DNA of 64,000 nucleotides, taken from Candidatus Woesebacteria bacterium RBG_16_42_24. GTDB taxonomy: Bacteria; Patescibacteriota; Microgenomatia; UBA8517. Position numbers and translations under genes: made by a program. The notes under the pieces were generated by a model, which was not told where the DNA came from, did not search any database, and saw nothing but the letters and a program-made list of their open reading frames with translations. The DNA lies in NCBI GenBank assembly GCA_001792115.1, contig MGFX01000001.1, positions 122,694 through 186,693 on the forward strand. Direction: 5' to 3'. This document shows positions 4,750 to 44,149 of the stretch, piece by piece (position 1 is the stretch's first letter; each line of letters begins with the position of its first letter).

Positions 4750-4797
4750 TGGATTAAAAGTAACACAGGTAGCAAAAGTATGACAAGTATAACAGGC

Positions 4798-5163
4798 TTA
4801 TCTACCTATTTTGCTTTTGTATCTAAAAAGTAAATAGCCAACCTTTGCTCTTTGACTGTCAAACCTCAAGTAATCATTCTCGTTCCAGTACTTTACTTCT
4901 CGCGCAACCTCCCCTTGGCTCTCCAATTCTAATAACGATCCTTCGGCAATTTCAAGATACCTAAGTTTATCTTTAGAAGACCTCCTCAACCAACCTTCGG
5001 CCATCTGGCTCATAATAGACACTGCGGCTCGCCTCATTTGTCCTTTAAGTGCGAAGTCTTCACTTCTGGGGAATTTTTCTGTTAGCTCATAAACCAATAC
5101 TGTAAGTTTTTTTGCTTCCTTCCAAACAATTAGGTTTCTATATCCGCTTACCAGTTTTTGCAT
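4798..5163 (-). CDS. four-helix-bundle protein (TIGR02436 / 23S rRNA-intervening-sequence protein family)
   Basis: 121 aa; family-typical YELTEKFP...R...QMRRAAVSI..NIAEG; flanked by inverted repeats (CAGGTAG/ CTACCTG, ACAAGTA/TACTTGT). Confidence 0.7.
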   Translation of the reverse strand: MQKLVSGYRNLIVWKEAKKLTVLVYELTEKFPRSEDFALKGQMRRAAVSIMSQMAEGWLRRSSKDKLRYLEIAEGSLLELESQGEVAREVKYWNENDYLRFDSQRAKVGYLLFRYKSKIGR

Positions 5164-5203
5164 TACCCTTTTCTACCTGCTCTACCTTTACTACTTGTAA
5201 TAC

Positions 5204-5458
5204 CTATCCTTGTATTCCCAATACTTGATTTATTTTCCCTTTATCGAATCCAACTATCGTCGATTTTGACCCATCGTCCTGGGCAATAACCGTAAAAGGT
5301 ACTCCTAAAAATCCGCCCGAGTCTTTCACCATCTCTTCCCTCGCCGCCTCATCCTGATCGACAAGTTTTTCGGTAAAAGGAATTGCCTTCCCACTCAAAT
5401 AATCCTTGAGCATTTTGCAGTAAGGACAAGTAGTTGTCGAAAAAACTGTAACAGTCAT
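5204..5458 (-). CDS. glutaredoxin-family (NrdH-like) redoxin
   Basis: 84 aa; CPYC active site near N-terminus. Confidence 0.7.
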   Translation of the reverse strand: MTVTVFSTTTCPYCKMLKDYLSGKAIPFTEKLVDQDEAAREEMVKDSGGFLGVPFTVIAQDDGSKSTIVGFDKGKINQVLGIQG

Positions 5459-5911
5459 TTATTCTGTCACCTCCAAGGTTCCTTCCAACCCAAGACCTCT
5501 GTGATTCCCAACGCTGCAATAAAAAGTGTAAGTTCCGGCCTCGTTAATTGTAAATTCGACAGAAACTGATTTACCGGGTCCTGCAAGCGAGGTAGATACA
5601 TTCATATCTTCAACGACAAAATCGTGGGGCATGTTGCCATTATTCACTAGAGTCAGTTTAATTTTCTCACCTTTTTTAACCGAGATCTCTTCGGTCGAGT
5701 AAGAAAATTCATCGGCTTCAATCGTAATTTCGCGAACGTCCTCTTCCCCCTCGCCTGGTATCACCTCTGGGGTCGGGGTGGGAGTAACAATCGGGGTAAT
5801 ATTCCCCGTGGGACTCTGGGTTTTCTCCCGACCTACTCCCAAAAAATATCCTGCAACAAGAAGTACAGCAACTAGGCTTCCAACCCCTAACCAAAGTCCC
5901 TTACCTTGCAT
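5459..5911 (-). CDS. membrane-anchored cupredoxin-domain protein
   Basis: 150 aa; N-term TM, C-term FYCSVGNHRG.. cupredoxin-like Cys/His ligands. Confidence 0.5.
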   Translation of the reverse strand: MQGKGLWLGVGSLVAVLLVAGYFLGVGREKTQSPTGNITPIVTPTPTPEVIPGEGEEDVREITIEADEFSYSTEEISVKKGEKIKLTLVNNGNMPHDFVVEDMNVSTSLAGPGKSVSVEFTINEAGTYTFYCSVGNHRGLGLEGTLEVTE

Positions 5912-6009
5912 AAATCTAGTCCAAGTATATCAGAACTTTTATTTTATTTGATACCTAAGTTTATATGCAAAACCAAAGAGTCAGGCGTAAGACAAATGCG
6001 ACAGGGAAA

Positions 6010-6759
6010 TTAACCGGTATGTGGAAGAATTGCCCTCATTAAAATGATCAAAATTACTCCCAAGATCAAAAATGAAACGTTTTTAACAGAAGACTTCTCC
6101 GATTCCATCTTGGTTTCGGGCAAAAAATCGGTTGCGGCAACATAGAGAAAAAGGCCCGCTGCAACGGACAGTAGCACGCCAACTGAACCTTCAATTTTTT
6201 GTGAGAAGAAAAAGGTTAGAAGTGCTCCTGGGAAAGTAGCAAGGGCCGAGTAAAAATTGGTTAAGAATGCTTTTGAAGGTTTAAATCCCGCTGAAAGAAG
6301 AATACCAAAGTCCGCTATCTCGTGGGGTGTTTCGTGCAAGAAAGTTGCAAGGGCAACAGTAAGTCCTAAAGGTGGGCTAACCATAAACGCCGCAGCGATG
6401 GCAACTCCGTCTAGAAAGTTGTGGATTGTGTCCCCAAATATTACAAGCGGGATGGCCGTTTTAGGTTCTACCTCGTCTTCAGTTGTATGGTGGTGGAGGT
6501 GAAATAAGAATCGCTCTATTAAAAAAAGAAGAATAAAAACTACAAGAACGACGCTAAAAGCGCCCGTATCTAACTGATCAACGGCTTCTGGTAGTAAATC
6601 TAAAAAGGAAACCGCCAGAAGTACCCCGGTAGCAAGTGGTAAAGCCATGCTTGAAAGTTTACGGCCCCAATCCGCTCTGAATAAAAAGATCGCTCCCCCT
6701 ATAAGTCCGGCTATACTTCCTAAAAACGCCAATGCAATAATATTTAGAAGATCTCCCAT
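6010..6759 (-). CDS. ZIP family metal (Zn/Fe) transporter
   Basis: 249 aa; His-rich loop HLHHHTTEDE, HNFLDGVAIA and HETPHEIADF motifs of ZupT/ZIP. Confidence 0.8.
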   Translation of the reverse strand: MGDLLNIIALAFLGSIAGLIGGAIFLFRADWGRKLSSMALPLATGVLLAVSFLDLLPEAVDQLDTGAFSVVLVVFILLFLIERFLFHLHHHTTEDEVEPKTAIPLVIFGDTIHNFLDGVAIAAAFMVSPPLGLTVALATFLHETPHEIADFGILLSAGFKPSKAFLTNFYSALATFPGALLTFFFSQKIEGSVGVLLSVAAGLFLYVAATDFLPETKMESEKSSVKNVSFLILGVILIILMRAILPHTG

Positions 6760-7485
6760 TTAAGAAAACAAAAAACCGAATACTCTCAACCAGGCTGGTT
6801 GTTCTACAAATAGAACTTCCCCGGTCATGGCCGAGATTGAAGTTGTAACCGGTATCTGGAATTTAAAAAGATTTACAATATTTATTGTCTTTTGTCCAAG
6901 AATTTCGTAGGTAAGTTCACCTCGTCCTCCTTCGGCCAACTCCATAGTATCTCCTTGTTTCATATTTGAAAATGTCTTTGCCCGAATCGCAACTTCTAAT
7001 GCTTCTTTTGGAAGAAATGGTAGAATTCTAATCCCGGAAGCAGTAACCACCGAAAGCTCCGCCCTGGCAGGGTCTATTTTTATGGGGTAGTCGGTTAGGG
7101 CAAGTGTTCCTTCCTCCTCAATCAAAAATCTACCAGCTAAAACTCCGATTTTGACCTTTCTTACCTGCGGTCTTTCCTCAATTTCTACAATTTCACCACC
7201 GATACTGGTTACGTCTAGACTTCTTTCTTGACCCCCTTCTTTAACGCTCAGTGTAAACTTGTCGCCTTCTTTTAGAAGCGAAACCAGCGAACTTTCGGCC
7301 GGTGAACCTCCGACGACATTTTTTACAACAATTTGAGATGCTTTTGGAATACCCAATGTGGCTTCGCTGGCAAGAACCTTCCAAACGACTTCGCCATTTT
7401 TGTCAATTACAATCAAGCTCGCAAAAGCATTTCTTGGGAAAAAAAAGGGTAAAATTAGTAGGAATAAAAGCAGGCTCCTTTTCAC
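6760..7485 (-). CDS. secreted hypothetical protein
   Basis: 241 aa with N-terminal signal peptide; no recognisable motif. Confidence 0.4.
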   Translation of the reverse strand: MKRSLLLFLLILPFFFPRNAFASLIVIDKNGEVVWKVLASEATLGIPKASQIVVKNVVGGSPAESSLVSLLKEGDKFTLSVKEGGQERSLDVTSIGGEIVEIEERPQVRKVKIGVLAGRFLIEEEGTLALTDYPIKIDPARAELSVVTASGIRILPFLPKEALEVAIRAKTFSNMKQGDTMELAEGGRGELTYEILGQKTINIVNLFKFQIPVTTSISAMTGEVLFVEQPAWLRVFGFLFS

Positions 7486-7533
7486 TACCTTAGAATACCC
7501 TTCTTAAATGGAGTCTGTCAACGAAGAATTTAC

Positions 7534-8061
7534 TTAAAAACTACCCTCTAGAATGTGCTTCTCGGGCTTTTTGTCGTCAACCGCTTCAAGCGTGACAACA
7601 ACTTCCGAGTATTCGGAGTAATCCCTTGAAGATTCAAATTCTAACATGTAGCCGCCTTTGGCAAGTGTTAGCCTTCCTGTTGAGATATAAGCAAAATTCT
7701 CATCCCCCTGCCTTCCGCGCACTAACCAGCCCTCGTAGAAATACCCGGCTGCGGGATCCGAAAGGTCGGCTAGAACCGCGTGGGTGAATTTACCCGATTC
7801 GAACTTTCTGGTTGCAAGGCCGCTAGCGTCTCCTCCTGAAACATCCCTAAGTTCCGCCTTATCGACATCTTCCGGAACTTGAATATTAAACCTGTCTTCA
7901 AATGTTTCTTCAAAAGTCGGTTGGGGTGCTGGAGGAAGCTCTGGGGTGCCCGCTTTACGATACCAGTAAACTATACCGGCGATAATTAGCAATACAATCA
8001 AACCTATAACTATATTTCTGCTCATTGGCCGAAGGTTAACACGACCTTTATATTTTGTCAA
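7534..8061 (-). CDS. membrane-anchored hypothetical protein
   Basis: 175 aa; single N-terminal TM, Pro-rich linker, C-terminal domain of unknown function. Confidence 0.4.
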   Translation of the reverse strand: MTKYKGRVNLRPMSRNIVIGLIVLLIIAGIVYWYRKAGTPELPPAPQPTFEETFEDRFNIQVPEDVDKAELRDVSGGDASGLATRKFESGKFTHAVLADLSDPAAGYFYEGWLVRGRQGDENFAYISTGRLTLAKGGYMLEFESSRDYSEYSEVVVTLEAVDDKKPEKHILEGSF

Positions 8062-8155
8062 ATTTTGGCGGGAGAACTCAAAATTTCCGCATATTTAACG
8101 CATTATTTCCGAAACGTACGAATTTATTAAAAGATTTTACGTTTCAAGCCTTACT

Positions 8156-8323
8156 TTAGATAGAGTCCAAAAAGGGCAAGAACCGCCGCCACCAAAAGCC
8201 ACTGTGTTGAGGCAAGCCAAATGTCCGTCCCCATATAGCCTACACCAGCTAAAATTACAGAAAAAACCGCCCCTGCAATCATTACTTGGGAAAATGTACT
8301 TCTCTCTTTCTTATCCATCTATT
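8156..8323 (-). CDS. small membrane protein (hypothetical, <60 aa, not in ORF track)
   Basis: ATG at 8323 (minus) gives ~55 aa with two hydrophobic segments (MDKKERSTFSQVMIAGAVFSV...). Confidence 0.25.
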
Positions 8324-8332
8324 CTCACCTCC

Positions 8333-8857
8333 TTAGACAACAAACTTATCTAATAAATAGCCTACTAAATAAGCAAGGGACGCTGCAAGACCCCCAATAA
8401 CAAGCATCTCAATTCCACTTTTAAACCAACTTTTTTTTGTGTAAAAACTCCGGAAACTTCCTATGCTAAAAAGCGAAATCCCTACAATTACCGCGGACTG
8501 AATAAATTCACCGCCCCATCTAAAGATAAACGGCAAAAGAGGTAAAAGTCCAGCGCCTACGAAAGCCGCATAAGTGATTACACCTGTTTTTACAGGTGAG
8601 GTATGTTTAGGTATGACTCTTTCTTCGGCTCTTTCATAATCAAGTTCACTTTTTACACCCAAGTATTTACCGGTAGCCATAGAAAGTCCGTCGGCTAAAA
8701 GATTTGCGAATCCCAAAATTAAAACAACCGTGGGGGAAAAAGAAGCACCTGCCGAGCCTGCCACAACTGCAAAAGTAGTAATCAGGCCGTCGTCAGCCGC
8801 AAAAACAGCCTCGCCAAAAAGCGAGGCCTTCTCATGAATTACTTCTCTTTCTCCCAT
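8333..8857 (-). CDS. VIT1/CCC1-family (DUF125) iron/manganese transporter
   Basis: 174 aa; GLITTFAVVAG..., GLSMATGKYLG, conserved Glu-rich loop; family-typical topology. Confidence 0.6.
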   Translation of the reverse strand: MGEREVIHEKASLFGEAVFAADDGLITTFAVVAGSAGASFSPTVVLILGFANLLADGLSMATGKYLGVKSELDYERAEERVIPKHTSPVKTGVITYAAFVGAGLLPLLPFIFRWGGEFIQSAVIVGISLFSIGSFRSFYTKKSWFKSGIEMLVIGGLAASLAYLVGYLLDKFVV

Positions 8858-8889
8858 TAATCCATATTACCACGACGAGGTGGGAAGAA

Positions 8890-9705
8890 TCATTCAACGA
8901 CAAAGGTCGATTCCTCGTAGAACCTCAAATTTAGATTTTTAAGAAAATTTTTGAAATAATTTTGCTTTTCTCTCTCTGTCACTCCTTTGCCGAGCATCGC
9001 GATTGGATAGTTGATTCTTAGAGCTCTCCCATTTATAACGTGCCTTGTTATTCCTGTAGGCAGCGTTATCCCTTTCTCCAGGAGACTATAAATTTCGTGG
9101 CTCGAAAATGATGGGAAGAAAAGAGCCACATTTTTATCCTTATGTTTGGTAAAGAATTCCGAAAGTTGGGCCATACTTTCTATGGTGACTTGCCTGTCGC
9201 GCTCAATAAGCTGCCCATAAAGCTTGACTACCGACCTCATGAGCTTTACCCGCCTTATTAGGTCGGAATTGGAGAAAATACTCAAGCCGTTTCCATCCCG
9301 GAAAATGATCGACGCTGCCGCCAGGGGATGACCGGTGAGTGTTACTCCGAGGCCAATCTTAAAGCTTTCCGTTTCTACTTTTGGGAGCATCTTCAGTTTT
9401 TTGAGAAATTCTTGTTTATTAACTTTGGAAACGTGGACCCAAGATTTAATTAGGACGGATGAGGTATCGTGGTAGTCAACCACCTGAACAACCACATGAC
9501 TACAGCCCAATTTTCTCAAGACATTGATTCTATTTGTACCGTCGAGCTGAATCAGCTTTTTACCCAGACCCGAAGCCACGATTGGAGGGTCTTTTAAAGT
9601 TTGCGATTTTCTGAATGCTTCGACCAAGTTCTTGAGGCGCTCACTTTCTGCTTCCTCCTGAAGTTCGATTGAAGAAAGCGGGACAAGTTTAAGTACCGGC
9701 TCCAT
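8890..9705 (-). CDS. ParB/sulfiredoxin-like nuclease-domain protein
   Basis: 271 aa; N-terminal ParB-like box (IQLDGTNRINVLRKLG). Confidence 0.45.
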   Translation of the reverse strand: MEPVLKLVPLSSIELQEEAESERLKNLVEAFRKSQTLKDPPIVASGLGKKLIQLDGTNRINVLRKLGCSHVVVQVVDYHDTSSVLIKSWVHVSKVNKQEFLKKLKMLPKVETESFKIGLGVTLTGHPLAAASIIFRDGNGLSIFSNSDLIRRVKLMRSVVKLYGQLIERDRQVTIESMAQLSEFFTKHKDKNVALFFPSFSSHEIYSLLEKGITLPTGITRHVINGRALRINYPIAMLGKGVTEREKQNYFKNFLKNLNLRFYEESTFVVE

Positions 9706-9773
9706 GCAAGGATTTTAACACTTTTTGAACATTCCTTAGAAACTGAAGTGCTCGCCAAGTGAAGTGACTAAAC

Positions 9774-9977
9774 TTATTCTTGCGGGGGTGGCTGAACTCC
9801 GCTCGGCGGTAGATTTTGCCCCCCACCCGGTTGTTGACCAGGAGGCTGTTGCTGGCCCGGTTGGGGCCCTTGTGGACTAGGGGCGGTGCGCCTTCCTAAA
9901 TAAAACCCGATAGCACCGGCAATTAACAATCCAATTCCCACCCAGGTTAAAATTAAAGCCTTCTTTTCGGGTGACAT
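9774..9977 (-). CDS. small Pro/Gln-rich membrane-anchored protein
   Basis: 67 aa; one TM then low-complexity PQG-rich tail. Confidence 0.3.
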   Translation of the reverse strand: MSPEKKALILTWVGIGLLIAGAIGFYLGRRTAPSPQGPQPGQQQPPGQQPGGGQNLPPSGVQPPPQE

Positions 9978-10089
9978 CTAATTACCTCCAGCATAACCAG
10001 ATTAGCAGAAATTCAAAACCCATGTCAAAAAACCTTCCTGCCCGCCCCTTTTTCTTAATTATGCTAAATCCAAAAACAGTTACATTTCA

Positions 10090-23933: not shown

Positions 23934-24188
23934 ATGTATTACGTTTACGTTCTTTTAAGTCAAAAGAAGAAAAGTTTATACATTGGCTATACTACGGACT
24001 TGAAAAAACGCCTGATTAATCATAATTCTGGTAAAAGTAGGGCTACCAAACCCTTTATTCCATATAAGTTAATCTTTTACGAGGCCTTTTTAAGTCCTAA
24101 AGATGCCAAAGCAAGGGAAGTTTACCTGAAAAGCGGTTGGGGACTGAGAAGCCTGAAAAAAATTAATAGGAGTATTTCGTTTAGGTGA
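23934..24188 (+). CDS. GIY-YIG nuclease, YhbQ/UPF0213 family (copy 3)
   Basis: ATG 23934: MYYVYVLLSQKKKSLYIGYTTDLKKRLINHN...; stop codon overlaps 5' end of tRNA-Ser(TGA); preceded by nested ACGT-centred hairpins. Confidence 0.7.
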   Translation: MYYVYVLLSQKKKSLYIGYTTDLKKRLINHNSGKSRATKPFIPYKLIFYEAFLSPKDAKAREVYLKSGWGLRSLKKINRSISFR

Positions 24189-24618: not shown

Positions 24619-25368
24619 TTAAGAAATCCCTCTCGCTAGAGTTAATCCCCAAATTTTTTCAACGTGAGCTCGTTTTAGAACCTTCGCCGCTTCTTTGAGA
24701 GTTGAGCCCGTTGTCCAGACGTCGTCAAATAAAACTAGCGTATGGGGTATAGGGTTTAGTGCATAGGAGGAATTTAGGGCGAAAACGCCCCTTACATTTT
24801 GTAGTCTTTCCTTACGCTTGAGAGCGGTTTGGGGAACTTTAAGCTCATGTCTAACCAATAAATCTGGAATAAACTTCCAACCAACACCCTCTGCAACCAC
24901 TTTTCCAATCTCCTCTGTCTGATTAAAGCCCCGCCAGTTTTTCCTGTACCAATAAAGAGGAACGGGAACCAGGGAATAAGAATTAGGCCTGCCTGCCGGC
25001 GAGGCAGGAACTAAGAATGATGAATTGTAGGTTTTGATAGCTGCGAGAGCATAGTTAGAAAGTTCTTTGGCGACCTCGTCGGCATATTTATATTTGAGAG
25101 CTAAAATTGCTTTTCGGATAACCCCGTCGTAATTCCATAGAGCAGTAAGACCATCTAATCCCCAGGGTCGCAAACACTTTGAATGCGTCATTCCGTCAAT
25201 CGAGGATTTAAGGCACCCGGGGCAAACGGGCTTTGGGGTTTTTACTTTATCAATACAGTTTTCGCAAATATACCTGCCCTCTTTACCACAACCAAGACAG
25301 GTTTTAGGAAAAAGGAGGTCCAAAATTCCCATCGCGCTATAATATAACCAGACCATGAAAATTACCAA
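24619..25368 (-). CDS. comFC: ComF-family phosphoribosyltransferase-like competence protein
   Basis: 249 aa; N-terminal Cys4 zinc finger (CLGCG...CENC), C-terminal PRTase motif LVLFDDVWTTGSTL. Confidence 0.7.
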   Translation of the reverse strand: MVIFMVWLYYSAMGILDLLFPKTCLGCGKEGRYICENCIDKVKTPKPVCPGCLKSSIDGMTHSKCLRPWGLDGLTALWNYDGVIRKAILALKYKYADEVAKELSNYALAAIKTYNSSFLVPASPAGRPNSYSLVPVPLYWYRKNWRGFNQTEEIGKVVAEGVGWKFIPDLLVRHELKVPQTALKRKERLQNVRGVFALNSSYALNPIPHTLVLFDDVWTTGSTLKEAAKVLKRAHVEKIWGLTLARGIS

Positions 25369-26261: not shown

Positions 26262-26543
26262 ATGGCGAAGAGTGTCCCGCGAAGTTTTAACGAAGTGGGA
26301 CAAAATATGTACTACGTTTACCTTCTAAAATTAAATAACGGAAATTACTACACAGGCTATTCAGCTAATCTGGAAAAAAGGATAGTGGAACATAAGCGGG
26401 GCAAAATTTTGACTACTAAAAATGCCTTACCCCTAAAACTTGTTTATTATTCTGTTTTCTTTACAAGGAAAAGGGCTCTTGCTTTCGAAAAATATTTAAA
26501 ATCAAGCTCGGGATTTGCTTTCAGGAACAAACGCTTAATCTAA
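26262..26543 (+). CDS. GIY-YIG nuclease, YhbQ/UPF0213 family (copy 4)
   Basis: 93 aa; MYYVYLLKLNNGNYYTGYSANLEKRIVEHKRGK...; directly downstream of tmRNA and its hairpin terminator. Confidence 0.7.
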   Translation: MAKSVPRSFNEVGQNMYYVYLLKLNNGNYYTGYSANLEKRIVEHKRGKILTTKNALPLKLVYYSVFFTRKRALAFEKYLKSSSGFAFRNKRLI

Positions 26544-28724: not shown

Positions 28725-28732
28725 ATAGATAC

Positions 28733-28841
28733 AATTTCCAATTTCCAGTTTCCAGTTTCCAATTAGTTCGAAGATCTCGAAATTTGAATTTATTAATTTG
28801 ATAATTATTTGGTATTTGGAATTTGGTGATTGGAAATTTCA
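28733..28841. repeat. heptamer-iteron palindromic element (TTTCCAA/TTTCCAG x4 ... AATTTGATAATTATTTGG ... TTTGGAA/TTGGAAA)
   Basis: Inverted arms of phased 7-nt TTCCARN / NYTGGAA repeats around AATTATCAAA-like core; family also at 32729-33228, 34124-34210, 53249-53356, 54173-54265, and a TCAAA-type variant at 29612-29728. Confidence 0.7.
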
Positions 28842-29546: not shown

Positions 29547-29611
29547 TTTGCCCGATTATAACGCGCCCAGCGCGATATATCAAAATTCAGATTTTGCTAT
29601 AGCACGAAAAT

Positions 29612-29728
29612 AAAGTCAAAACTCAAAAGTCAAATGTCAAAGTTTAAACTTTAAAACTAAAAAGTTTGAGTCAACAACTTTTGAATTTTTAATTACAATT
29701 TTGAATTTTGAGTTCTAAATTTTAAGTT
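29612..29728. repeat. heptamer-iteron palindromic element, TCAAA-type variant
   Basis: GTCAAAA CTCAAAA GTCAAAT GTCAAAG ... TTAATTACAATTTTGA ATTTTGA GTTCTAA ATTTTAA. Confidence 0.6.
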
Positions 29729-29730: not shown

Positions 29731-31485
29731 TTACAGCTTCTCTATATTAAAAAGCGTGCTCTTGAGACCAATGTAGCCTGGGGCGCGAAGGTTAAAGGCG
29801 CGTTTTAACTCCTCGCCACTCACTGAAATACTTCCTTTATTGGTGCCGAAGGTAACCGATAGGGTGGAACCATTAGTTGAATAAATTACTGAAATTGAAG
29901 AAGCACTATTGTATCCTCCAATTCCCGCAAGTTCGCTTTTGGAGTAGGGGTTTCCGCCCCAACAAGCAGTATCTATGGGAGAAACCCTCGAAGCATCTCC
30001 CCCTCCTTGGTAGAGTACATGCCAAGCATTTAGAATGTCCGCCATCTCTTCCGAGGTTAGCCAAGGGTGGGAACGACCGCAGGTTGCACCTGACCTGGCT
30101 TTATACCAACCCTTATAAAACCAAGGCGAGGCCGAAACTTTCTCGTAAGCTGTACCCGGCCAATCGCCGGATGCGTCTTTTATTCCGCTCCAACCCCATT
30201 GGGAAATGGTAAATCCTCCGGAGGTTGAGGCATAGTAAGTCGTTGCAAAACTTCCCCCCCTCATCATCACCCAACCGCGAGTGGCTTGAACTGCTTCTCT
30301 CCACTTGCCGCTTTTTAACTGTGGCTTATACACCTGACAACTCTCGGTCGGACAAATTGTTCCCGACCCTCCATTTGTAACTGCCAAGGCATAAGAGCGT
30401 GCCGCGACTGCCTGGGCTTTCAAAGCCTCAAATCCGCCCGAGTTTCCCCAAGACTCTGGAACTTCGTAAATGCCTAAAAGGTAATTGTCTTCAAAGGGAA
30501 TGCTTCCATAACCCGAGACATTTATAGTTGCCGGTGAGGGATAATCTTTCCTAAGCTCTCCTCCTTGATAGTATGCAGAAAGAATCGTCTCCGCAGACTG
30601 CCCCGACTTACTCCTTCCATAGGCTCCGTACTGACTCATACCGGTTCTATGTGGAGCGCCAAATGAGAAAGCGGCGAATGCGGGTCGAAAGCCCGGGTCG
30701 CAGAAATTGGAAGAGCCGGGGGCACCGGAGCAGGGTTCTAAAGTTGCCGGCGTATCCCCAACAGAAGTTGAAAATCCTCCTGCCTTGAGTGCCAAGAGCT
30801 CATTTTGGCGTGAAGTTAGAGAGCTTAGATAGGATTCTGTTTTCGCGACTTCCCCTGCCAGAAAGTCCGCCTGTTTATCAACTTTTGCCTGGAGCGCGGA
30901 AAGGGCTGTTTTATTTTTTTCTAAAGATTCTTTGTCGGATTTCAGGTTTCCAAGATCCTGGGCATAAGCCTCCATTGTGCGTCTATCCTCGTCGGCCGCT
31001 TTTTGGCGAAAGTTAATCTCCCGAAATGCTTCCGATGCGTCAGTTGAGGAAAGAAAGGGCATAAGGGGATCATAAAGACGAATAAACTTATAATGATTTG
31101 CGGCTTTTTCCTCAAAAATTTCTTTTGTATACGCCAAGTCCTCTTCTCTTTGGGCGATATCCGACTCAACCCTGGTTAGTTGGGCGGAGACTCCTGTAAT
31201 TTGCTTGGAAATTGAGGCTAGCTGGGCTTTTAGCTTAGCCAGTTCCTGTTTATTTGTTTCTTGGGCCGGAGTTAGGGCGTCGAGCTGCTCCTGAATTTTT
31301 GCAAGGCAATAGTCAATGTCGCCAGGGCCGGGCGAGTCGCAGTTGGGCTCGGCGGAAATAGTGAATAGTGAATGGTAATTAGGGATTGGTCGGGGCAGGA
31401 TGGCCAATGCAAGAGAAATGCTTCCGAAAAATAAAATTATTAACTTTGTACTATGCACTATGCGCTTTGCTCTATACTTTCTCAC
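29731..31485 (-). CDS. secreted coiled-coil protein with C-terminal SpoIID/LytB domain (cell-wall amidase enhancer-like)
   Basis: 584 aa; signal peptide, ~200-aa coiled coil, then HRTGMSQYGA...AQAVAARSYALA SpoIID/LytB signature. Confidence 0.6.
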   Translation of the reverse strand: MRKYRAKRIVHSTKLIILFFGSISLALAILPRPIPNYHSLFTISAEPNCDSPGPGDIDYCLAKIQEQLDALTPAQETNKQELAKLKAQLASISKQITGVSAQLTRVESDIAQREEDLAYTKEIFEEKAANHYKFIRLYDPLMPFLSSTDASEAFREINFRQKAADEDRRTMEAYAQDLGNLKSDKESLEKNKTALSALQAKVDKQADFLAGEVAKTESYLSSLTSRQNELLALKAGGFSTSVGDTPATLEPCSGAPGSSNFCDPGFRPAFAAFSFGAPHRTGMSQYGAYGRSKSGQSAETILSAYYQGGELRKDYPSPATINVSGYGSIPFEDNYLLGIYEVPESWGNSGGFEALKAQAVAARSYALAVTNGGSGTICPTESCQVYKPQLKSGKWREAVQATRGWVMMRGGSFATTYYASTSGGFTISQWGWSGIKDASGDWPGTAYEKVSASPWFYKGWYKARSGATCGRSHPWLTSEEMADILNAWHVLYQGGGDASRVSPIDTACWGGNPYSKSELAGIGGYNSASSISVIYSTNGSTLSVTFGTNKGSISVSGEELKRAFNLRAPGYIGLKSTLFNIEKL

Positions 31486-32381: not shown

Positions 32382-32382
32382 A

Positions 32383-32718: not shown

Positions 32719-32728
32719 AGCCTTAATA

Positions 32729-33228
32729 CAATTTCCAGTTTCCAGATTCCAATTTCCAGTTAATTTCTAATTATCAAAATTTCGAAATTAATAATTTTTC
32801 CTTTCTAAAGTAAGTATTGAAGTTGTCAAAATCTTTATAATTTCCCCACCCTCATTTATTAGCGTCTTACACTTTATAACAACTTCCTCATAAGAGGGAT
32901 TGGCCTCCAGGATTAATCGAAGCCAATAGATAGATTCTCTGGTCTCTTTCCTGCAGACCCTTAATCTATGAACAAAGTCTTTTCTTCCAAGTGCTTCGAG
33001 CGCTTCAATATAATTTGACCCGGGTGAAGCGGAAGATCGTATAAGCTGTTTTCCATATTCTCTGTTGTATTCGGATTTTGGAAGTTCGAATATTATTTTT
33101 TGACAATTTTGTGCAAAAACTACGAGTCTTTCATAAAAGGCTTCTGAATCGAATTTGGTTGCCATGGGGCGAATTCTATCATTTTATTTGGAAACTGGAA
33201 ATTGGAGATTGGAAATTATCAATTATAG
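32729..33228. mobile_element. split heptamer-iteron palindrome enclosing a four-helix-bundle gene
   Basis: Left arm CAATTTCCAGTTTCCAGATTCCAATTTCCAG..AATTATCAAAAT (32729-32800); right arm TTTGGAAACTGGAAATTGGAGATTGGAAATTATCAATTAT (33183-33228); the 4HB gene lies between the arms. Confidence 0.5.
32788..33165 (-). CDS. four-helix-bundle protein (TIGR02436 family)
   Basis: 125 aa; family-typical ...Y.RL..FAQNC..II.ELPKSEY..GKQLIRSSAS.GSNYIEA.... Confidence 0.7.
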   Translation of the reverse strand: MATKFDSEAFYERLVVFAQNCQKIIFELPKSEYNREYGKQLIRSSASPGSNYIEALEALGRKDFVHRLRVCRKETRESIYWLRLILEANPSYEEVVIKCKTLINEGGEIIKILTTSILTLERKNY

Positions 33229-33285
33229 TCTTGCATGGACACCATTTGCGGCGCTATGCTAAACTACACAAGCTAAAATAAAACG

Positions 33286-34032: not shown

Positions 34033-34123
34033 AGAAGACTTCGTCTTCACGAAATTCCAAATTCCCTGCCTCGCCGGCAGGCGGGCAATTACCCCGCCTA
34101 CGCCAAGGCTTCGGCGGGCAGGC

Positions 34124-34210
34124 AATCTCCAATTAAATTCCAAAATCCTAATTATTAATTTGATAATTCTAGATTATCTGGAAACTGGAATCTGGAAATT
34201 GGAAATTAGT
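34124..34210. repeat. heptamer-iteron palindromic element upstream of pilin gene
   Basis: TCTCCAATTAAATTCCAAAATCCTAATTATTAATTTGATAATTCTAGATTATCTGGAAACTGGAATCTGGAAATTGGAAATT. Confidence 0.65.
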
Positions 34211-34939: not shown

Positions 34940-34940
34940 T

Positions 34941-35679: not shown

Positions 35680-35694
35680 TTAAGGAGTAGAGAT

Positions 35695-36021: not shown

Positions 36022-36033
36022 GACTTATCTAAG

Positions 36034-36061: not shown

Positions 36062-36113
36062 GGCAAAGGGCAAAATTGCTTTTTTTGTATCTACGCCCTA
36101 AACTTTTAGTGAT

Positions 36114-36434: not shown

Positions 36435-36440
36435 TGATAT

Positions 36441-38840: not shown

Positions 38841-38942
38841 AGAGAAGATATTACGATATTAAGATACAAAGATATAAAGTGCTTTTAACACTCAAGTGAT
38901 GTTTTTTATTTTAGAGGTCTGTAGTATTATGAAATAATCACC

Positions 38943-40679
38943 GTGATTAAAAAACTGCTCGCATCCCTGCTTTTGTCTATCTTCCTTTTGGTTTCTATCT
39001 TCCCCAAAGTTGCCTCTGCTCAGACCTGGTACAGCCAAGGACCCCTGGAGTGGTATACCAAGGTCTATGACGAAGCCCAATCTCCTCAAAATGAAATATT
39101 TGGGGAGCGCTATACTGCGGCTCAGGTAGAGTGGATCATCTATACAATCGTCACCTGGCCATTTACAAAAATCTTGGGTCCGGAGATCACTACCTGTGCC
39201 CTTAGTACCGATGTTGGTACGTGTATCACGGCTATTATTACAGACGCTAGCCCTCTCCCTAATCTCGCAGCCCTCCCGAAACCCAAAGAAGAAGGCCTAT
39301 TAAAAGTTATGTTTAAGGATAAAGAACTTTCCGGAGTTACTTATGTAAAAAACGTAATCAGAAAGTTTCACTTAGTACCCCAGGCAGAAGCACAAGCGGG
39401 TTTCGGCTTCACAGAAGCACTTCTGCCAATCCAGGCTATGTGGAGGGCTTCAAGAGACATTGCATATGGACTCTTTGTCGTAGTTGCTTTGATTCTGGCA
39501 TTCATGATTATGTTCAGAGTCAAAATCGCCCCACAGGTCGTTATAACCGCCCAGTCCGCCCTTCCCAAAATTCTCATTGCTGTCGTACTTGTAACTTTTT
39601 CCTACGCAATAGCCGGCTTTATTATCGACTTTATGTACGTCGTTATCGGGCTAATTAGTCTTCTGGCAGTTAACTACTTTCCCGACCTTCTCATAAAATC
39701 CATAGCCCCACCCCTCCCCCCCGTTATCACACCAACTGTGATATTTAATACCCTAACCCTAGGGCAGCCATTATCTCTAAACTTTCCTTCGCCATATGGG
39801 ATATTTGGACTTTTTGCCTTTTACTTATTGCTTTTTGCCTTGTCAGGTGCTTTGGTTATTGGCTCTTCTATTGGCCTCATAGGGATTGCTCTGACAGGGG
39901 CGGTTGGGGCAGCCTTACTATTAAGCGTGTTTCCAACTGCTGGGCTGACAGCAATGCTGCTCTTAGTTGGGTTTATCCTCTTTCTAATAGTATTTATCAT
40001 CCTTCTCTGGATGTTTTTCAAAACGTTATTTATGCTTTTTAAGGCCTACGCAGGGGTTATTCTATTGACTATATTTGCACCGTTTCAAATTTTGGTTGGA
40101 ACAGTAGTTCCGAGCCTGGGATTCGGCAGGTGGCTTCGGAGTTTTGTGGCCAATTTAGCTGTTTTCGTGGTAGTTGGGGTTCTATTCCTCCTTGCTTATA
40201 TTTTTGCCATTCAGGCAATGACTTTTGCCCTTCTTGCGAATGGTATTCAAGAAGACGTAATCCTTGGTATTCTAAACGGGATTTTCGGAACAAACATTAT
40301 CGGAACAGCCCAAAACCTCTTTCTCGGCACCAGCTCAGCCGGCTGGCCGCCTCTTTTGGGAACATTGGGGGGGTCGGGAGACGCGGCCGTCTCCTTCCTA
40401 TTTTTAGGAGTAAGCTTTGTCCTATTTACACTTATTCCCAAGGCCGCCGACATCATCCAGGGCCTCATCTCCGGCCGACCATTTGCATATGGAACGGCGA
40501 TAGGTGAAGCCTTCTCTCCTCTTGCCTATCCATTCGGTGTGGCGAAGGGCGCAGCTGAGAAAGGAGTAACGGGATACGTTGGTGAAGGCTACATTAAGCC
40601 CTGGCTTCAGCAAAGATTTGGGCACGGAACACCTGAGGTTGGACGCAGAGGGCTTGGTGGAAAACCTCTCGCTGAGTAA
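38943..40679 (+). CDS. polytopic membrane protein, candidate VirB6/PrgH-like T4SS channel component
   Basis: 578 aa; signal peptide, periplasmic domain then ≥8 TM helices; assignment by topology and gene order (upstream of PrgI/VirB4-like genes). Confidence 0.4.
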   Translation: MIKKLLASLLLSIFLLVSIFPKVASAQTWYSQGPLEWYTKVYDEAQSPQNEIFGERYTAAQVEWIIYTIVTWPFTKILGPEITTCALSTDVGTCITAIITDASPLPNLAALPKPKEEGLLKVMFKDKELSGVTYVKNVIRKFHLVPQAEAQAGFGFTEALLPIQAMWRASRDIAYGLFVVVALILAFMIMFRVKIAPQVVITAQSALPKILIAVVLVTFSYAIAGFIIDFMYVVIGLISLLAVNYFPDLLIKSIAPPLPPVITPTVIFNTLTLGQPLSLNFPSPYGIFGLFAFYLLLFALSGALVIGSSIGLIGIALTGAVGAALLLSVFPTAGLTAMLLLVGFILFLIVFIILLWMFFKTLFMLFKAYAGVILLTIFAPFQILVGTVVPSLGFGRWLRSFVANLAVFVVVGVLFLLAYIFAIQAMTFALLANGIQEDVILGILNGIFGTNIIGTAQNLFLGTSSAGWPPLLGTLGGSGDAAVSFLFLGVSFVLFTLIPKAADIIQGLISGRPFAYGTAIGEAFSPLAYPFGVAKGAAEKGVTGYVGEGYIKPWLQQRFGHGTPEVGRRGLGGKPLAE

Positions 40680-40697
40680 TTAAAAAGGAATTTATTT

Positions 40698-40850
40698 ATG
40701 GATGATAATAAAAATATACCTAAATTTTCAAAGAGTAAATCTAAAGACATAACTAGGGAAAAACAAGAATTAAATCCGGATGAAGATTCCGGGCCCCTAG
40801 AAGATGAAACTAAACCAGGAGTAATAAAAGCGGGAGAACTTCCAGAATAA
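40698..40850 (+). CDS. small hydrophilic hypothetical protein (50 aa; below ORF-track cutoff)
   Basis: AAAAGGA Shine-Dalgarno-like 8 nt upstream of ATG; MDDNKNIPKFSKSKSKDITREKQELNPDEDSGPLEDETKPGVIKAGELPE. Confidence 0.25.
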   Translation: MDDNKNIPKFSKSKSKDITREKQELNPDEDSGPLEDETKPGVIKAGELPE

Positions 40851-40853
40851 AAG

Positions 40854-43559
40854 TTAACCCCTAGTAGCCTTATCAAAAGCCGCACTCAAAGCCTTCTGTC
40901 CGGCAAGTTTTGCTAGTCTTCTATTAAAGTTAAGTCTACGCTTTATATCTTCCATAGTTATTTCTGTTAGAAATGTTCCTACCTCGGGAGAAAGCTCTTC
41001 CCGCGTTAATGTATTTATGAATTCCGCCAAAACTGTACCTATTGATTTACGCCCTATATCCAAGTCTTTATCGGCAAGGGCCATGTCTATTACACCGACT
41101 GCCCAAAGACCTCTTAGCTGCATAGGGCCCATTTTCTCGATTCTCAGATTTTCAGGTGCATCGGCAGTATTGAAATATACAACAGCTTCTTGCATAAAAG
41201 TCTTGTCCATTTCGGCAATCTTAGGCTTTCTATCTAAAAGAAGTCCACTTAGAAGCTTATATCTTGTCATAATAACGCTGCAATAAAACTGCCAATTGTC
41301 CTCTATTTGACTTATATCCAAATTGTCCACATTCATTTGGGTATCTACCCTAAAAGGAAGCCTTTCCCGCTGCCTCCCTTTAAATTTCTTTGTTTGTTTA
41401 TCCTCTTGGGTCCATCTTAACCACGACGTTCCAAACCCCCTAATTTCATCCTCGTGTACTTGCGGGCCCCTTATTCTACCCTTGCTTCTCCTGGCTTCCC
41501 TCCACTTTTTCAGACCAAATATTTCAGCTACCTGGTCGTTGCCTACAGTATCTCCTCTATTGAAAACAGAGTCTTCAAGGGTGGCCCGAGATAGTTTTTC
41601 TGCAAGCTGAAGCGACTTTTTAGCGTTTTCTCTTCTTTCTTCTGGAGTATTTCCATCAACACTCTCACTCCTCGCAATTTCCTCTATAAGAAGATTCCTA
41701 ACGGCTTCTTCTATTATTGGGTTTGTTTCTCTAAAAAAATTTACATTAGTGCGCGGCTTGAGTTTTCCTTCTTTGTTTCGTAAATCTTTATCATCTTTTG
41801 GAACCACCCTATCAACCCATTTCATATACTCCTGGTTATCGAAAACTGTATTGCCATCCTTATCTTCGCTTACATCAAAATGGTTTAGTTGCTGAAGTAA
41901 GTCCCACGCCCTGGGCACATCGAGCCCAGGCAATAACTCTCGTTTTAAAAACGTCTCTACTATCTCCCTATTTAACTGGTGCCCCCTTCTCTGAGCTTCT
42001 GCCGCCGCACTTCCAATTGCATATCCATGTCCCACTTTCTCTTCCTCCCTAAAAATCCACCCGTCAGCTTGTTTAATTAGCTCTGAACAGTCGTGTACGG
42101 CAAGCCTGGCTCTAGCTTCTCTCGCGATTCCTTTATCAATTTTTTCTATGGCCCCAAGTGATACCTCTAGCCCCCTTACAATATAGGTATTGCCAAAATC
42201 GAGAGTATCCCTGTTCGAATTCTCTATAGCATCTAATTTCTCTCGAACAAAAGCCCTAAGTTCTTCCACTTTTCCTTCGTATCTTTTAACGTCTATTTGA
42301 TACTCCCCCATAGTCATCCTAGATTGTGATTCGGCGGCACTCCTCATCGCCTCTGCGGCAGCAGTTAACACATCTGCCGATTCTTTAGTCCCTTGTTCCG
42401 ATTCGGGTCTAAATTTCTTCTTTGATAATGACGTCTTGACAAAATCGTGGGGTTCTACTCCCAGCTGGAAAAATGCTTCCCTCTGTACGCGCTTCTCTAG
42501 AAATTTCAAGCCTTCCTCTCCCTCTGATTCTCCGTGCATTTTTAACCACAAAATATCCTCCGGGGATCCCGCCACCATTGAAGGTCGCTTTTTAAATCGC
42601 TTTTCAAAACCGATTTTTCTAATTCTTAGCGCCTCCCCGGCGAATGCCGCACGCAGCATTCCTTCTTCTTCGGGTTTTAGGAAGCCCGTTGTACTTAAGG
42701 CTAAATTTTCTGCGTTAATCCCAAAGTTTTTAACATTGTCGTAAACCTCATCCCAAGTACTATCTCCAAGAATATTTAAATAAGTTTGTGTAATATCTTT
42801 AACAAATGCTTTGTGGTCCTGGTCTCGTTCGCTAAAGTTTTTCCACATCTCGTCCCTTTTTTCCATTGCTTTCTTTCTCGTCTCTTCTGATGTCTCATCG
42901 TCAATAATTATTTTTCGAAGGTCTTTAAAATTATCTGGTAATCTACCATCCTCTTTTGGGGGTTCCTCGGGCGGTTTTTCCGGAGGGCCTCCCTCTCCAC
43001 CAGGAGGAGTGCCTCTAGCTTCTTTTTCCCACCCCCTACTTTTTATCCATCGTGCAACCGCTCCCGGAAACCTTTCGACAAATTCATCTGCGGCATGAAC
43101 AGCTGCACCCCCCAGCGAAACCGGTAGGGCATTTAGCAAGCCTTCCCATGTTGACGCCTTTCCTTCCTTCTCAAGCTCCTCAATGTAGCGCATAAGGATT
43201 TTGCCCTGCCAGTGATGGCCCTCTGTCTCACTAATCTCATTTCTATTTACAAGCCCTTCTATAGTGTCGTAAGACCCTTGTAGAACTTCTTTGCTCACCA
43301 TGACATCTGGCCTTCTAGCGAGGCTATGAATTTCTACTTGAAGTGTCTCATTTTTAATATTATCGACCTCTTCTCGATTCTTAACTAACCATGGAGCCCA
43401 CTCTTCTCCCTCCGGTCCCTCAACCCGCCGATGGGGTAAAGATTGGTGTGGGTTGACAGGATTAGCCATAGCCCTTTTTCGAATCTCCCCAATTGAAGCA
43501 CCTTTTGATTCAATAATAATTTCGGGGCCTTTGCCCCCTCCGCCTTCTGCCATATCCAT
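40854..43559 (-). CDS. large acidic cytoplasmic hypothetical protein
   Basis: 901 aa single ORF, opposite strand within the T4SS-like locus; no recognisable motif. Confidence 0.4.
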   Translation of the reverse strand: MDMAEGGGGKGPEIIIESKGASIGEIRKRAMANPVNPHQSLPHRRVEGPEGEEWAPWLVKNREEVDNIKNETLQVEIHSLARRPDVMVSKEVLQGSYDTIEGLVNRNEISETEGHHWQGKILMRYIEELEKEGKASTWEGLLNALPVSLGGAAVHAADEFVERFPGAVARWIKSRGWEKEARGTPPGGEGGPPEKPPEEPPKEDGRLPDNFKDLRKIIIDDETSEETRKKAMEKRDEMWKNFSERDQDHKAFVKDITQTYLNILGDSTWDEVYDNVKNFGINAENLALSTTGFLKPEEEGMLRAAFAGEALRIRKIGFEKRFKKRPSMVAGSPEDILWLKMHGESEGEEGLKFLEKRVQREAFFQLGVEPHDFVKTSLSKKKFRPESEQGTKESADVLTAAAEAMRSAAESQSRMTMGEYQIDVKRYEGKVEELRAFVREKLDAIENSNRDTLDFGNTYIVRGLEVSLGAIEKIDKGIAREARARLAVHDCSELIKQADGWIFREEEKVGHGYAIGSAAAEAQRRGHQLNREIVETFLKRELLPGLDVPRAWDLLQQLNHFDVSEDKDGNTVFDNQEYMKWVDRVVPKDDKDLRNKEGKLKPRTNVNFFRETNPIIEEAVRNLLIEEIARSESVDGNTPEERRENAKKSLQLAEKLSRATLEDSVFNRGDTVGNDQVAEIFGLKKWREARRSKGRIRGPQVHEDEIRGFGTSWLRWTQEDKQTKKFKGRQRERLPFRVDTQMNVDNLDISQIEDNWQFYCSVIMTRYKLLSGLLLDRKPKIAEMDKTFMQEAVVYFNTADAPENLRIEKMGPMQLRGLWAVGVIDMALADKDLDIGRKSIGTVLAEFINTLTREELSPEVGTFLTEITMEDIKRRLNFNRRLAKLAGQKALSAAFDKATRG

Positions 43560-43624
43560 ATTTTCCCATTTTTAGGCTTTTTTTGCAAAAAATGACTTGT
43601 GAAAAAGCATAGTACTTGAATTGA

Positions 43625-43700
43625 AGTGTTCACGGGGTAAGCTAGAAACTAGTGCATAGTACATAGTTTATAGGCGATAGTACAAAGTACATAGTCCAAA
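43625..43700. repeat. AGTGCATAGTACATAG-family palindromic element, left arm
   Basis: CTAGTGCATAGTACATAGTTTATAGGCGATAGTACAAAGTACATAGTCC; inverted partner at 44100-44145 (TCTATGCACTTTGTTCTTTGCACTACGTACTA) on the other side of the 4HB gene; same family at 31375-31470 and 53133-53210. Confidence 0.6.
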
Positions 43701-43714
43701 GAAAAAATAAACCA

Positions 43715-44098
43715 ATGGCGGAACCTGTCCAAAAAACTAGCTATAAAAACTTAATAGTTTATCAGAAGGCAAAAGCTCTAACGACAGATGTCCTTAGTTA
43801 TTTCTCAGAACATAAGCTACCTTACACAAAAGAATTCTTAATAAGACAATTATTCCGATCCGTTAGTTCAGTTGGGGCAAATATTGCTGAAGGCTACGGA
43901 AGGCATTATCAAGGAAGCCTAAGGCAATTCTTCGCCATCGCACGAGGTTCGAGTTTTGAGTCAGATTACTGGCTAGAGATTCTTCAGGAAATGGGAGAAT
44001 TTGACGGGAAAATAATATCAGATTTTATTAACAGAAACACAGAGCTTTCAAAAATGTTGACAAGTTTGATGAAAAAGACAGACGTTTCGCGTCAATAG
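43715..44098 (+). CDS. four-helix-bundle protein (TIGR02436 family)
   Basis: 127 aa; YKNLIVYQKAKALT..V......LPYTKEFLIRQLFRSVSSVGANIAEGYGR. Confidence 0.7.
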   Translation: MAEPVQKTSYKNLIVYQKAKALTTDVLSYFSEHKLPYTKEFLIRQLFRSVSSVGANIAEGYGRHYQGSLRQFFAIARGSSFESDYWLEILQEMGEFDGKIISDFINRNTELSKMLTSLMKKTDVSRQ

Positions 44099-44149
44099 TC
44101 TATGCACTTTGTTCTTTGCACTACGTACTAATTACTATTTACTAAATTA

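Follow-up and report, generated by a model that had tools for sequence, protein, structure and literature searches.

Small four-helix-bundle genes between inverted short-period repeat arrays as candidate insertion modules in the intergenic DNA of a Candidatus Woesebacteria genome

Introduction

Small four-helix-bundle (4HB) proteins of the PF05635/TIGR02436 family are encoded within intervening sequences (IVSs) of the 23S rRNA genes of Leptospira, Coxiella burnetii and Xanthomonas/Brucella, where the open reading frame (ORF) lies inside stem-forming inverted repeats and the insertions are sporadically distributed. The Coxiella IVS carries three to four GACAGAT heptamers, variable in copy number, directly before its S23p ORF; the first heptamer repeat is the RNase III site, and ORF-bearing IVSs have long been suspected of being mobile, with the ORF serving mobility (PMC4990558). 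Free-standing 4HB genes are also known, inserted within cas operons (PMC3936711), and in the literature we found the family is functionally uncharacterised. Here we analyse a stretch of 64,000 nucleotides from Candidatus Woesebacteria bacterium RBG_16_42_24 (contig MGFX01000001.1, positions 122,694 to 186,693; hereafter the window), in which three 4HB genes each lie between two inverted arrays of short tandem repeats. We propose, with a probability of roughly 0.55, that each 4HB gene, together with the two inverted short-period arrays beside it, makes up a single IVS-like selfish insertion module in intergenic DNA. Published work already covers IVSs that carry an ORF within a stem, the heptamers of Coxiella and the idea that IVSs move; the literature found held no report of extra-ribosomal copies in fixed-length inverted heptamer arrays, of clean insertions/deletions (indels) or of gene-less derivatives.

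The units in the window share with 23S IVSs the PF05635 protein, the enclosure of the ORF by stem-forming inverted repeats, the sporadic distribution and, as in Coxiella, heptamers directly upstream of the ORF. Unlike IVSs, they lie between protein-coding genes (in an operon interior, a 5' leader and a convergent/divergent spacer), and there are several divergent copies per genome as well as gene-less palindromes of the same families. Rfam detected no rRNA in the window, in contrast to IVSs, which lie in helix 25 or helix 45 of the 23S rRNA, and rRNA probes revealed no rRNA context in any of the loci fetched for comparison (given below by L numbers), the comparison with IVSs being drawn from the literature.

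Three other systems invite comparison. In the REPIN/RAYT system (repetitive extragenic palindromic (REP) doublets forming hairpins, and REP-associated tyrosine transposases) one small gene likewise has inverted copies of a repeat at its two sides, with further, gene-less doublets of this repeat dispersed elsewhere, and the repeats are intergenic or intra-operon, expanded in one lineage and absent from close relatives. The window gene, however, encodes a predicted non-catalytic four-helix bundle matching PF05635 only and not an HUH/Y1 (IS200/IS605-like) transposase, its arm is a heptamer array rather than a REP hairpin, and several families coexist, each with a divergent gene. The gene-less copies resemble miniature inverted-repeat transposable elements (MITEs), REP/BIME (bacterial interspersed mosaic element), ERIC (enterobacterial repetitive intergenic consensus), Correia and RUP (repeat unit of pneumococcus) sequences in being small, palindromic, intergenic, polymorphic and hairpin-forming. 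Their arms, in contrast, are not unique terminal inverted repeats but four to five 7-nt units in tandem, and, unlike a MITE or a terminal-inverted-repeat transposon, the window unit has no cognate transposase and only ATGA as a candidate for a fixed-length target duplication. The third system is bAvd of diversity-generating retroelements (DGRs), a homologous four-helix bundle that binds a cis-encoded imperfect stem beside its own gene. In the DGR ribonucleoprotein (RNP) all five protomers of the Avd pentamer hold on to an RNA stem-loop of 11 bp, and flipped-out RNA bases enter the crevices between them (10.1101/2023.10.23.563531). Here, by contrast, the called-gene tables around the three 4HB genes list no reverse transcriptase (RT), a template/variable repeat is likewise absent from their surroundings, and the stem, about 30 bp long and with mismatches at a 7-nt period, would have the gene itself within it.

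Results

Whole-unit presence and absence in sister lineages

Syntenic sister DNA was fetched by way of the neighbouring proteins, which are 75–87% identical to those of the window. At locus 1, three distinct lineages (TpiA 79–82% identical) keep the order cupredoxin-grx-tpiA-rpiB-pgk-gap with a grx-tpiA gap of only 16–37 nt; in the window, unit 1 makes up the whole spacer from the grx stop codon (5204) to the tpiA start codon (4749), in the orientation of the operon. Five relatives at locus 2 (L091, L092, L093, L099 and L103; UppS 78–87% identical) have neither a 4HB gene nor a heptamer array and keep the pilin-like gene, a 77–95-nt spacer and the uppS promoter block TGGACAcCATTT...TAAACT. At locus 3, L163 (VirB4 84% identical) has the promoter-like block as far as ...GTAA(G/C)CTAGA, after which 23 unrelated nt lead up to the PrgI-like ATG in the place of the 502-nt unit 3 of the window, and L164 and L165 contain no arrays and no 4HB gene. 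The unit, i.e. the 4HB gene with its arms, is gained or lost whole. Since each site is empty, arms included, in two or three sister lineages that are independent of one another, parsimony favours insertion in the lineage of the window.

The 122 kb of close syntenic relatives hold two period-7 arrays (at least 3.5 copies) and no 4HB gene, compared with 17 such arrays (26.6 per 100 kb) and three 4HB genes in the 64-kb window. An initial annotation of this DNA had suggested a small selfish element and raised the question of whether the number of 4HB genes varies; the presence and absence of units between lineages and these counts agree with such an element. A role in the processing of palindromes, its other suggestion, is conceivable. 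It had also described the genes as cargo inserted into intergenic palindromes; so worded, the description is not supported, as the sister genomes are without palindrome and gene alike at all three sites.

Inverted arrays around 4HB genes in the window

An iterative hidden Markov model scan of every window ORF of at least 70 aa identified exactly three 4HB genes, referred to as 4HB-1 to 4HB-3 (Table 1; cut-offs 24 bits for TIGR02436 and 33.8 bits for PF05635). Their proteins share 18–30% pairwise identity and are, judging by this divergence, old paralogues. For all 77 non-overlapping ORFs of the window, the flanks were scored by local alignment, the sequence upstream of the ORF being matched with the reverse complement of that downstream of it. 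Among these 77, the 4HB genes rank first (score 35), second (32) and tied third (22), where the window median is 14; the score of locus 1 compares with a 95th percentile of 21 and is weak taken alone. Together with the profile matches and the pairing of the arms, these ranks bear out the initial placement of three TIGR02436 genes between inverted repeat arms.

The units measure about 0.45–0.52 kb, and Tandem Repeats Finder (TRF) assigns a period of 7 to the arrays of loci 2 and 3 and of 9 to those of locus 1. In unit 1, the 9-nt repeats, of an AGGTAG family, read ..CTAC/TTAC in the 3' arm (48 nt) and AGGTAGNNN x4 in the 5' arm (40 nt), and pairing (4753–4796 with 5169–5210; several 20–26-nt pairs, 73–80%) is weaker than at the other two loci. 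The arms of unit 2 pair over 35 nt (32727–32761 with 33193–33227, 77% complementary), with an inner box, TTAATTTCTAATTATCAAAATTTCGAAA, at 32762–32787, and those of unit 3 over 45 nt (43650–43694 with 44100–44144, 71%). Terminal inverted arrays are present on both the filled and the gene-less copies.

Two conserved blocks coincide with the outer edges of the units. A promoter-like TGGACA-18-TAAACT before uppS (33236–33265), conserved with relatives, forms that of unit 2, and the block TTGCAAAAAAnGACTTGTGAAAAAG...GTTCACG before the PrgI-like operon (43575–43647), likewise conserved with relatives, forms that of unit 3. With this promoter-like block on one side and the ATG of the PrgI-like/VirB4 operon on the other, unit 3 sits between a promoter and its first gene.

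Table 1. Coordinates of the 4HB genes, the units and the gene-less palindromes in the window.
Feature	Coordinates	Strand	Details
4HB-1 ORF	4798..5163	-	TIGR02436 E 3.6e-29, 101 bits; PF05635 110 bits
4HB-2 ORF	32788..33165	-	TIGR02436 E 3.1e-18, 66 bits; PF05635 43 bits
4HB-3 ORF	43715..44098	+	TIGR02436 E 2.4e-24, 86 bits; PF05635 85 bits
Unit 1	4750..5203	-	3' arm 4750-4797, ORF 4798-5163, 5' arm 5164-5203
Unit 2	32719..33235	-	arms 32727-32761 (TTTCCAR x4) and 33186-33227 (YTGGARA x4); ORF 32788-33165
Unit 3	43648..44149	+	arms 43650-43700 (TAGTRCA x6-7) and 44099-44145; ORF 43715-44098
Gene-less palindrome, TTTCCAR family	28727..28841	.	between two co-directional genes; z = -4.7 / -3.7
Gene-less palindrome, other heptamers (AAAGTCA / TTTTGAA-type arrays)	29589..29728	.	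about 20 unrelated nt in L091
Gene-less palindrome, TAGTRCA-related (AATAGTG... / ...CTATGCA)	31357..31475	.	TRF arrays
Gene-less palindrome, TTTCCAR family	34051..34208	.	left arm split by nested 59-nt GC-rich hairpin 34067-34125
Gene-less palindrome, TAGTRCA family	53105..53212	.	abuts dnaA start; z = -5.3 / -6.4
Gene-less palindrome, TTTCCAR family	53246..53356	.	between DnaA box and rpmH -10 element
Gene-less palindrome, TTTCCAR family	54172..54265	.	between yidD and yidC

Recurrence of the layout across phyla

As the three window proteins were too divergent for a search with their joint alignment, related loci were sought with an alignment of the 4HB-2 subfamily, whose profile, scanned against one genome per GTDB species, returned 80 loci from Patescibacteria, Bacteroidota, Planctomycetota, Chloroflexota, delta-proteobacterial and other metagenome-assembled genomes (MAGs) and isolates. 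The median inverted flank score was 31 for 77 4HB loci and 17 for 119 control ORFs having at least 60 nt of intergenic DNA on each side (Mann-Whitney p = 4e-21); 48% of the 4HB loci exceeded the 95th percentile of these controls, and 74% if all ORFs serve as controls. The same 4HB flanks scored 31 when aligned as inverted repeats and 17 as direct repeats (p = 4e-11). The best autocorrelation period was 7 or 14 in 54/80 upstream and 55/80 downstream flanks, period 7 accounted for 380 of the approximately 1130 TRF arrays, and the modal array length was 30–32 nt, corresponding to four heptamers plus three bases. Array density reached 240 per 100 kb within 160 nt of a 4HB gene, against 6–8 elsewhere. 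Stray arrays did not co-occur significantly with 4HB genes at the genome level (8.2 vs 6.3 per 100 kb), and only the window set beside its close relatives gives a striking difference.

The left arm was always A/C-rich (CAAA 220 vs 33) and the right arm T/G-rich (TTTG 39 vs 288), an order that is a property of the palindrome because a palindrome reads alike on both strands. Heptamer sequences varied widely among loci (e.g. AAATTCC, GAACCAA, CACCAAG, CATTTAA, TCTCAAA). Relatives of 4HB-2 with 65–68% identity, which precede yceG/rpoB or follow a long prenyltransferase gene, have TTTCCAG x4 arms and retain inner AATTATCAA/TTGATAATT boxes, so that, at the level of sequence, protein subfamily and arm family are passed on together although the genomic surroundings differ. 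A second 4HB subfamily was found in cultured cyanobacteria: the plasmid copies of Nostoc punctiforme and Nostoc C052 lie between TCAGGAG x7 and CTCCTGA arrays, in Picosynechococcus GGAGATA / ATCTCCT arrays accompany a copy lodged between cmr2 and cmr3, and the copy on the gamma plasmid of PCC 7120 is flanked on either side by arrays that lack complementarity to each other. By these comparisons the heptamer-armed layout recurs across phyla.

A chance or low-complexity artefact would be conceivable, the intergenic DNA here being AT-rich and locus 1 weak by itself. Against it stand the first, second and third ranks among the window ORFs, the difference from intergenic-flanked controls, the inverted scores far above the direct ones, and the fact that the entire arm-bearing segment is a clean indel, and we consider it very improbable.

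Arrays of extreme form were seen beside 4HB genes, namely a 276-nt TTTGGTA run of about 39 copies in a Nitrospiraceae MAG (L019 4541–4816) and five TTTGGAA arrays at 44-nt spacing in a Flavobacterium MAG (L047 5412–5619).

The encoded proteins

The GxxRxxxSxxxNxxE motif (PMC3936711) was found as R..S..N..E in QLIRSSASPGSNYIEA of 4HB-2 and RSVSSVGANIAEG of 4HB-3, and in 4HB-1 Q replaces N (RRAAVSIMSQMAEG). An Rx4-6H (HEPN-like) reading of an RKETRESxHW motif was rejected, as the spacing misfits and the His is unconserved in the window proteins. An AF2 model was made of 4HB-2 only and comprises four helices (pLDDT 95). In Foldseek its best matches were 2RLD (BT_0352; TM 0.74–0.87; profile match E = 2e-16) and 2GSC (Xcc0516, a pentameric toroid), and it also matches bAvd, free or within the DGR RNP. 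Xcc0516, BT_0352 and bAvd all form homopentameric toroids. The Avd profile NF033474 matched 4HB-1 only, at 29.9 bits vs a cut-off of 80, and likewise PHROGs returned Avd for 4HB-1 only; PADLOC gave no match in the window. Viral contigs contained no relatives of 4HB-1 or 4HB-3 and one distant relative of the 4HB-2 subfamily, and phage carriage is unsupported. The 4HB-2 protein is 100% identical to one of Candidatus Woesebacteria bacterium RBG_19FT_COMBO_42_9, and its locus was also found in aquifer metagenomes.

Gene-less palindromes

Seven palindromes in the window have arms and no 4HB gene (Table 1). They are 95–160 bp long, intergenic, dispersed and polymorphic in presence or absence between relatives, and they fold as strong hairpins on either strand. 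The TTTCCAR family comprises unit 2 and four gene-less copies, and the TAGTRCA family unit 3 and two. The initial annotation had listed the two adjacent-arm TAGTRCA-family copies (those beginning at 31357 and 53105), which are real, and had missed the four TTTCCAR copies (28727, 34051, 53246 and 54172). Rfam returned nothing at the window palindromes at gathering thresholds, and nothing at E <= 0.1 at seven related loci.

These palindromes are themselves insertion/deletion polymorphisms. The one at 28727 is flanked on both sides by ATGA, the sole candidate for a target-site duplication, and the same site in L091 is an overlapping ATGA start/stop. The palindrome abutting dnaA is not present in L162 or L164, the one beside rpmH is missing from L164, and yidD and yidC overlap or abut in both L162 and L164, i.e. 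without the palindrome found between them here. The loop of the copy at 53246 has TTAATTATCAAAATT and CGAAAC in common with the non-coding parts of unit 2, and TTAATTATCAAAWTT and CGARAYYTT in the loops of gene-less copies are also found there, so that these copies look like unit 2 minus its ORF. We infer that the gene-less palindromes are miniature derivatives of the units.

The spacer between dnaA and rpmH contains a perfect DnaA box, TTATCCACA (53216–53224), with the palindromes at 53105 and 53246 on either side of it. The block around it (gagTTATCCACAattagtcaaccccc, 53213–53229) is conserved in L162 and L164, both without palindromes, suggesting a likely oriC invaded by two elements.

Two further repeats were noted. 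The GC-rich hairpin CTGCCTCGCCGGCAGGCRGG, nested in the palindrome at 34051, occurs twice in the window (34066–34125 and 24988–25007; 0.01 expected by chance); its 20-mer is also present in a Saccharibacteria MAG (L032 6123–6142), and a near-copy, CCTGCCTACCGGCAGGCAGG, lies inside the upstream array of a 4HB gene in a Parcubacteria MAG (L036 ~4900). It may be a second, unrelated miniature repeat of candidate phyla radiation (CPR) genomes. A lone period-7 array (4059–4091; AACTTTT x4.7, + strand) overlaps the junction between tpiA and rpiB as well as the start called for rpiB; it differs from the palindromes in lacking an inverted partner and in being kept in a sister lineage (L155 9558–9585, AAAAGTC).

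Pairing of the arms

When the three units were folded as RNA, the 5' and 3' arms paired with each other around the ORF in both the minimum free energy and the centroid structures (z = -3.0, -1.7 and -1.6), and in these models the arm stems are thermodynamically credible. The likeness to stem-bounded, ORF-bearing 23S IVSs that the initial annotation had pointed out is upheld by the inverted arms and by these folds, in which an arm-arm stem encloses each ORF. Pairs of mismatches between the arms are enriched at spacings of 1, 6–8 and 14 and depleted at 3–4 and 10–11, with a peak at lag 7 (ratio 1.54); the arms accordingly share a paired core of about 4–5 nt per heptamer, separated by freely differing positions. 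By analogy with Avd, a homologous pentamer could plausibly take as its ligand a stem of roughly 30 bp in which bases stay unpaired at 7-nt intervals.

Genomic setting

The window has a G+C content of 43% and includes a glycolytic/pentose operon, a type IV secretion-like cluster, tRNAs, a tmRNA and the origin region dnaA-rpmH-rnpA-yidD-yidC. The VirB4-like ATPase downstream of unit 3 (45279–48023) is 914 aa long, where most homologues have 580–650 aa and cover only about 63% of it. Two of its homologues (P0257 and P0334) carry intein/LAGLIDADG domains, and in L087 a heptamer array lies between two gene parts matching this ATPase.

Discussion

A model for the module and the evidence weighed

In the mechanism we envisage, the module would enter 'safe' intergenic positions such as stop-to-start junctions, 5' leaders and promoter-distal spacers, and would leave or spawn gene-less miniature (MITE- or REPIN-like) copies. 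Its arms would pair, in read-through RNA or in extruded single-strand DNA, as an imperfect stem, some 30 bp long and interrupted by unpaired bases at regular intervals, and the encoded Avd-like pentamer would bind this stem as bAvd binds its stem-loop. Such binding could keep the two ends of the element together, control or shield its transcript, or bring in host enzymes for movement. Catalytic activity is probably absent from the unit, and movement would need to borrow host or trans-acting functions. The initial annotation had named two findings that would speak against its idea, and the data show the opposite of both: members of the family elsewhere likewise have flanking inverted repeats, and relatives without the gene have not kept the palindromes at these sites.

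A number of observations, given here and with the alternatives below, weigh against the module. The only ORF of the unit, a four-helix bundle of 121–127 aa, matches no transposase, recombinase or nuclease family, and binding of the 4HB protein to the arms is pure inference by analogy. No consistent target-site duplication was apparent at the junctions examined. Unit 1 is identical at the same site in a 99%-identical strain and unit 3 in one of 98% identity, which places the events in a not very recent past, and near-identical copies at different sites were not seen, copies within a family being about 70–80% alike.

Further observations of this kind concern what the arms enclose and where they occur. 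In L036 (3440–4210), AATTCAA x4 ... TTCGAAT arrays enclose a two-ORF cargo with a 104-aa GIY-YIG nuclease, 0.8 kb upstream of that locus's own array-flanked 4HB gene; the small GIY-YIG ORFs of the window (26307–26543 and 23934–24188, near tmRNA and tRNA-Ser) have no such arrays. Inverted AGCTGAA-type arrays in a CPR locus (L131 13912–14228) enclose rpmA, encoding ribosomal protein L27, and such arms are therefore not exclusive to 4HB genes. The site at 31357 has palindromes in relatives too (L091, 7810–7905; L099, ~1100–1200), with other heptamers (ACCAAAT, ACTGAAA, ATAGAAA / TTGAATT vs AATAGTG/CTATGCA in the window); at this site, upstream of a gene for a SpoIID-domain protein, the heptamers could have been replaced quickly in place, or a hot spot could have received insertions more than once. 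Such cases fit an alternative in which heptamer palindromes spread independently, in the manner of REP or MITE sequences, and 4HB genes were captured later in their loops, as do the excess of gene-less (seven) over filled (three) copies in the window and the gene-less inverted arrays in CPR loci without a nearby 4HB gene. However, no sister lineage shows an empty palindrome at any of the three filled sites, arrays are some 30–40 times denser beside 4HB genes than elsewhere, and the gene-arm association spans phyla, very different heptamers and a 23S IVS, for which repeated capture is hard to imagine. With sister sites that have neither palindrome nor gene, and an arm family that travels with the protein, it is simpler to take gene and arms as primary and the palindromes as derived, and we think independent palindromes improbable as the starting point.

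The remaining points of this kind concern RNA. The arms show no strand bias of G-U over A-C pairs (100 vs 102), and permuting the order of the heptamer units in one arm gave a mean z of 0.55 (p = 0.37) in a small sample (n = 12); with neither a G-U bias nor significant unit-by-unit complementarity over and above the common motif, selection for an RNA stem is not demonstrated. A promoter-like TTTCCA-17-TGaTAGAAT in unit 2 (33201–33173), ending 8 nt before the 4HB-2 ATG, would by its position exclude the 5' arm from the gene's own mRNA. If used, this site would yield a near-leaderless mRNA, and the stem would exist only in read-through RNA or in DNA.

These results bear on an explanation in which the arms form a transcript stem that serves as an RNase III site, an mRNA stabiliser or a translational clamp on the start codon. 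The 4HB gene would then encode a host factor set by the stem, the gene-less palindromes would be REP-like operon hairpins, and presence and absence would be ordinary gain and loss. It draws on the pairing of 5' and 3' arms in all three folded units, the strong hairpins of gene-less copies on both strands, the co-oriented position of units 1 and 3 inside host transcription units, 5' arrays that often reach the ATG, and the cutting of the Coxiella IVS by RNase III at the first heptamer. Yet a sense-strand wobble bias is absent, the variable heptamer positions do not co-vary between arms, and 4HB-2 runs antisense to both neighbouring genes with a promoter-like site that leaves out the 5' arm. Such a cassette also leaves unexplained why an arm family follows its gene into unrelated contexts and why gene-less copies and genes occur together in the window lineage only. 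We regard it as unlikely, though it is the strongest of the alternatives.

The arrays could also be operators bound by a sequence-specific regulator or nucleoid protein, possibly the 4HB protein itself in autoregulation, with the gene-less copies as further regulated sites. The 4-nt conserved cores, variable spacers, fixed 7-nt pitch and sharp modal length of about 31 nt would suit such sites; one array covers the -35 region of the promoter-like site of 4HB-2 and another lies just upstream of the rpmH -10 element, and the palindromes cluster around the DnaA box, three of them near oriC/dnaA-rpmH-yidC. Sister genomes with the same genes and promoters are without the arrays, however, which are consequently unneeded for regulation there, the heptamer sequence differs greatly among close protein relatives, and the only characterised homologue binds structured RNA and not duplex DNA. 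Operator sites appear quite improbable to us, and an insertion module of gene and arms is the reading we prefer.

Implications

The PF05635/TIGR02436 family is among the commonest small 'hypothetical' families of bacteria, often with many copies per genome, in operons, cas loci and rRNA genes. A wider reading, for which we would give rather less than even odds, is that free-standing PF05635 genes with inverted heptamer arrays represent a widespread, unrecognised class of enzyme-less mobile elements. The 23S IVSs would then be a special rRNA case and the palindromes of CPR, Bacteroidota and cyanobacterial genomes non-autonomous offspring; the pentamer would recognise the stem of its own ends, and movement would be carried out by the host or by a trans-acting RT or nuclease. 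The finding joins the ORF-bearing 23S IVSs, the origin of which has been open since 1993, with free-standing 4HB genes and the short heptamer palindromes of CPR and other genomes, three subjects hitherto treated apart. Recognising the arms would help in annotating small repeats, indels in MAGs and CPR operon structure. Should the module prove mobile, it would represent an element able to spread with no enzyme of its own. Its conserved cis-architecture offers the first testable mechanistic handle on the family, suggesting a defined nucleic-acid ligand for the pentamer.

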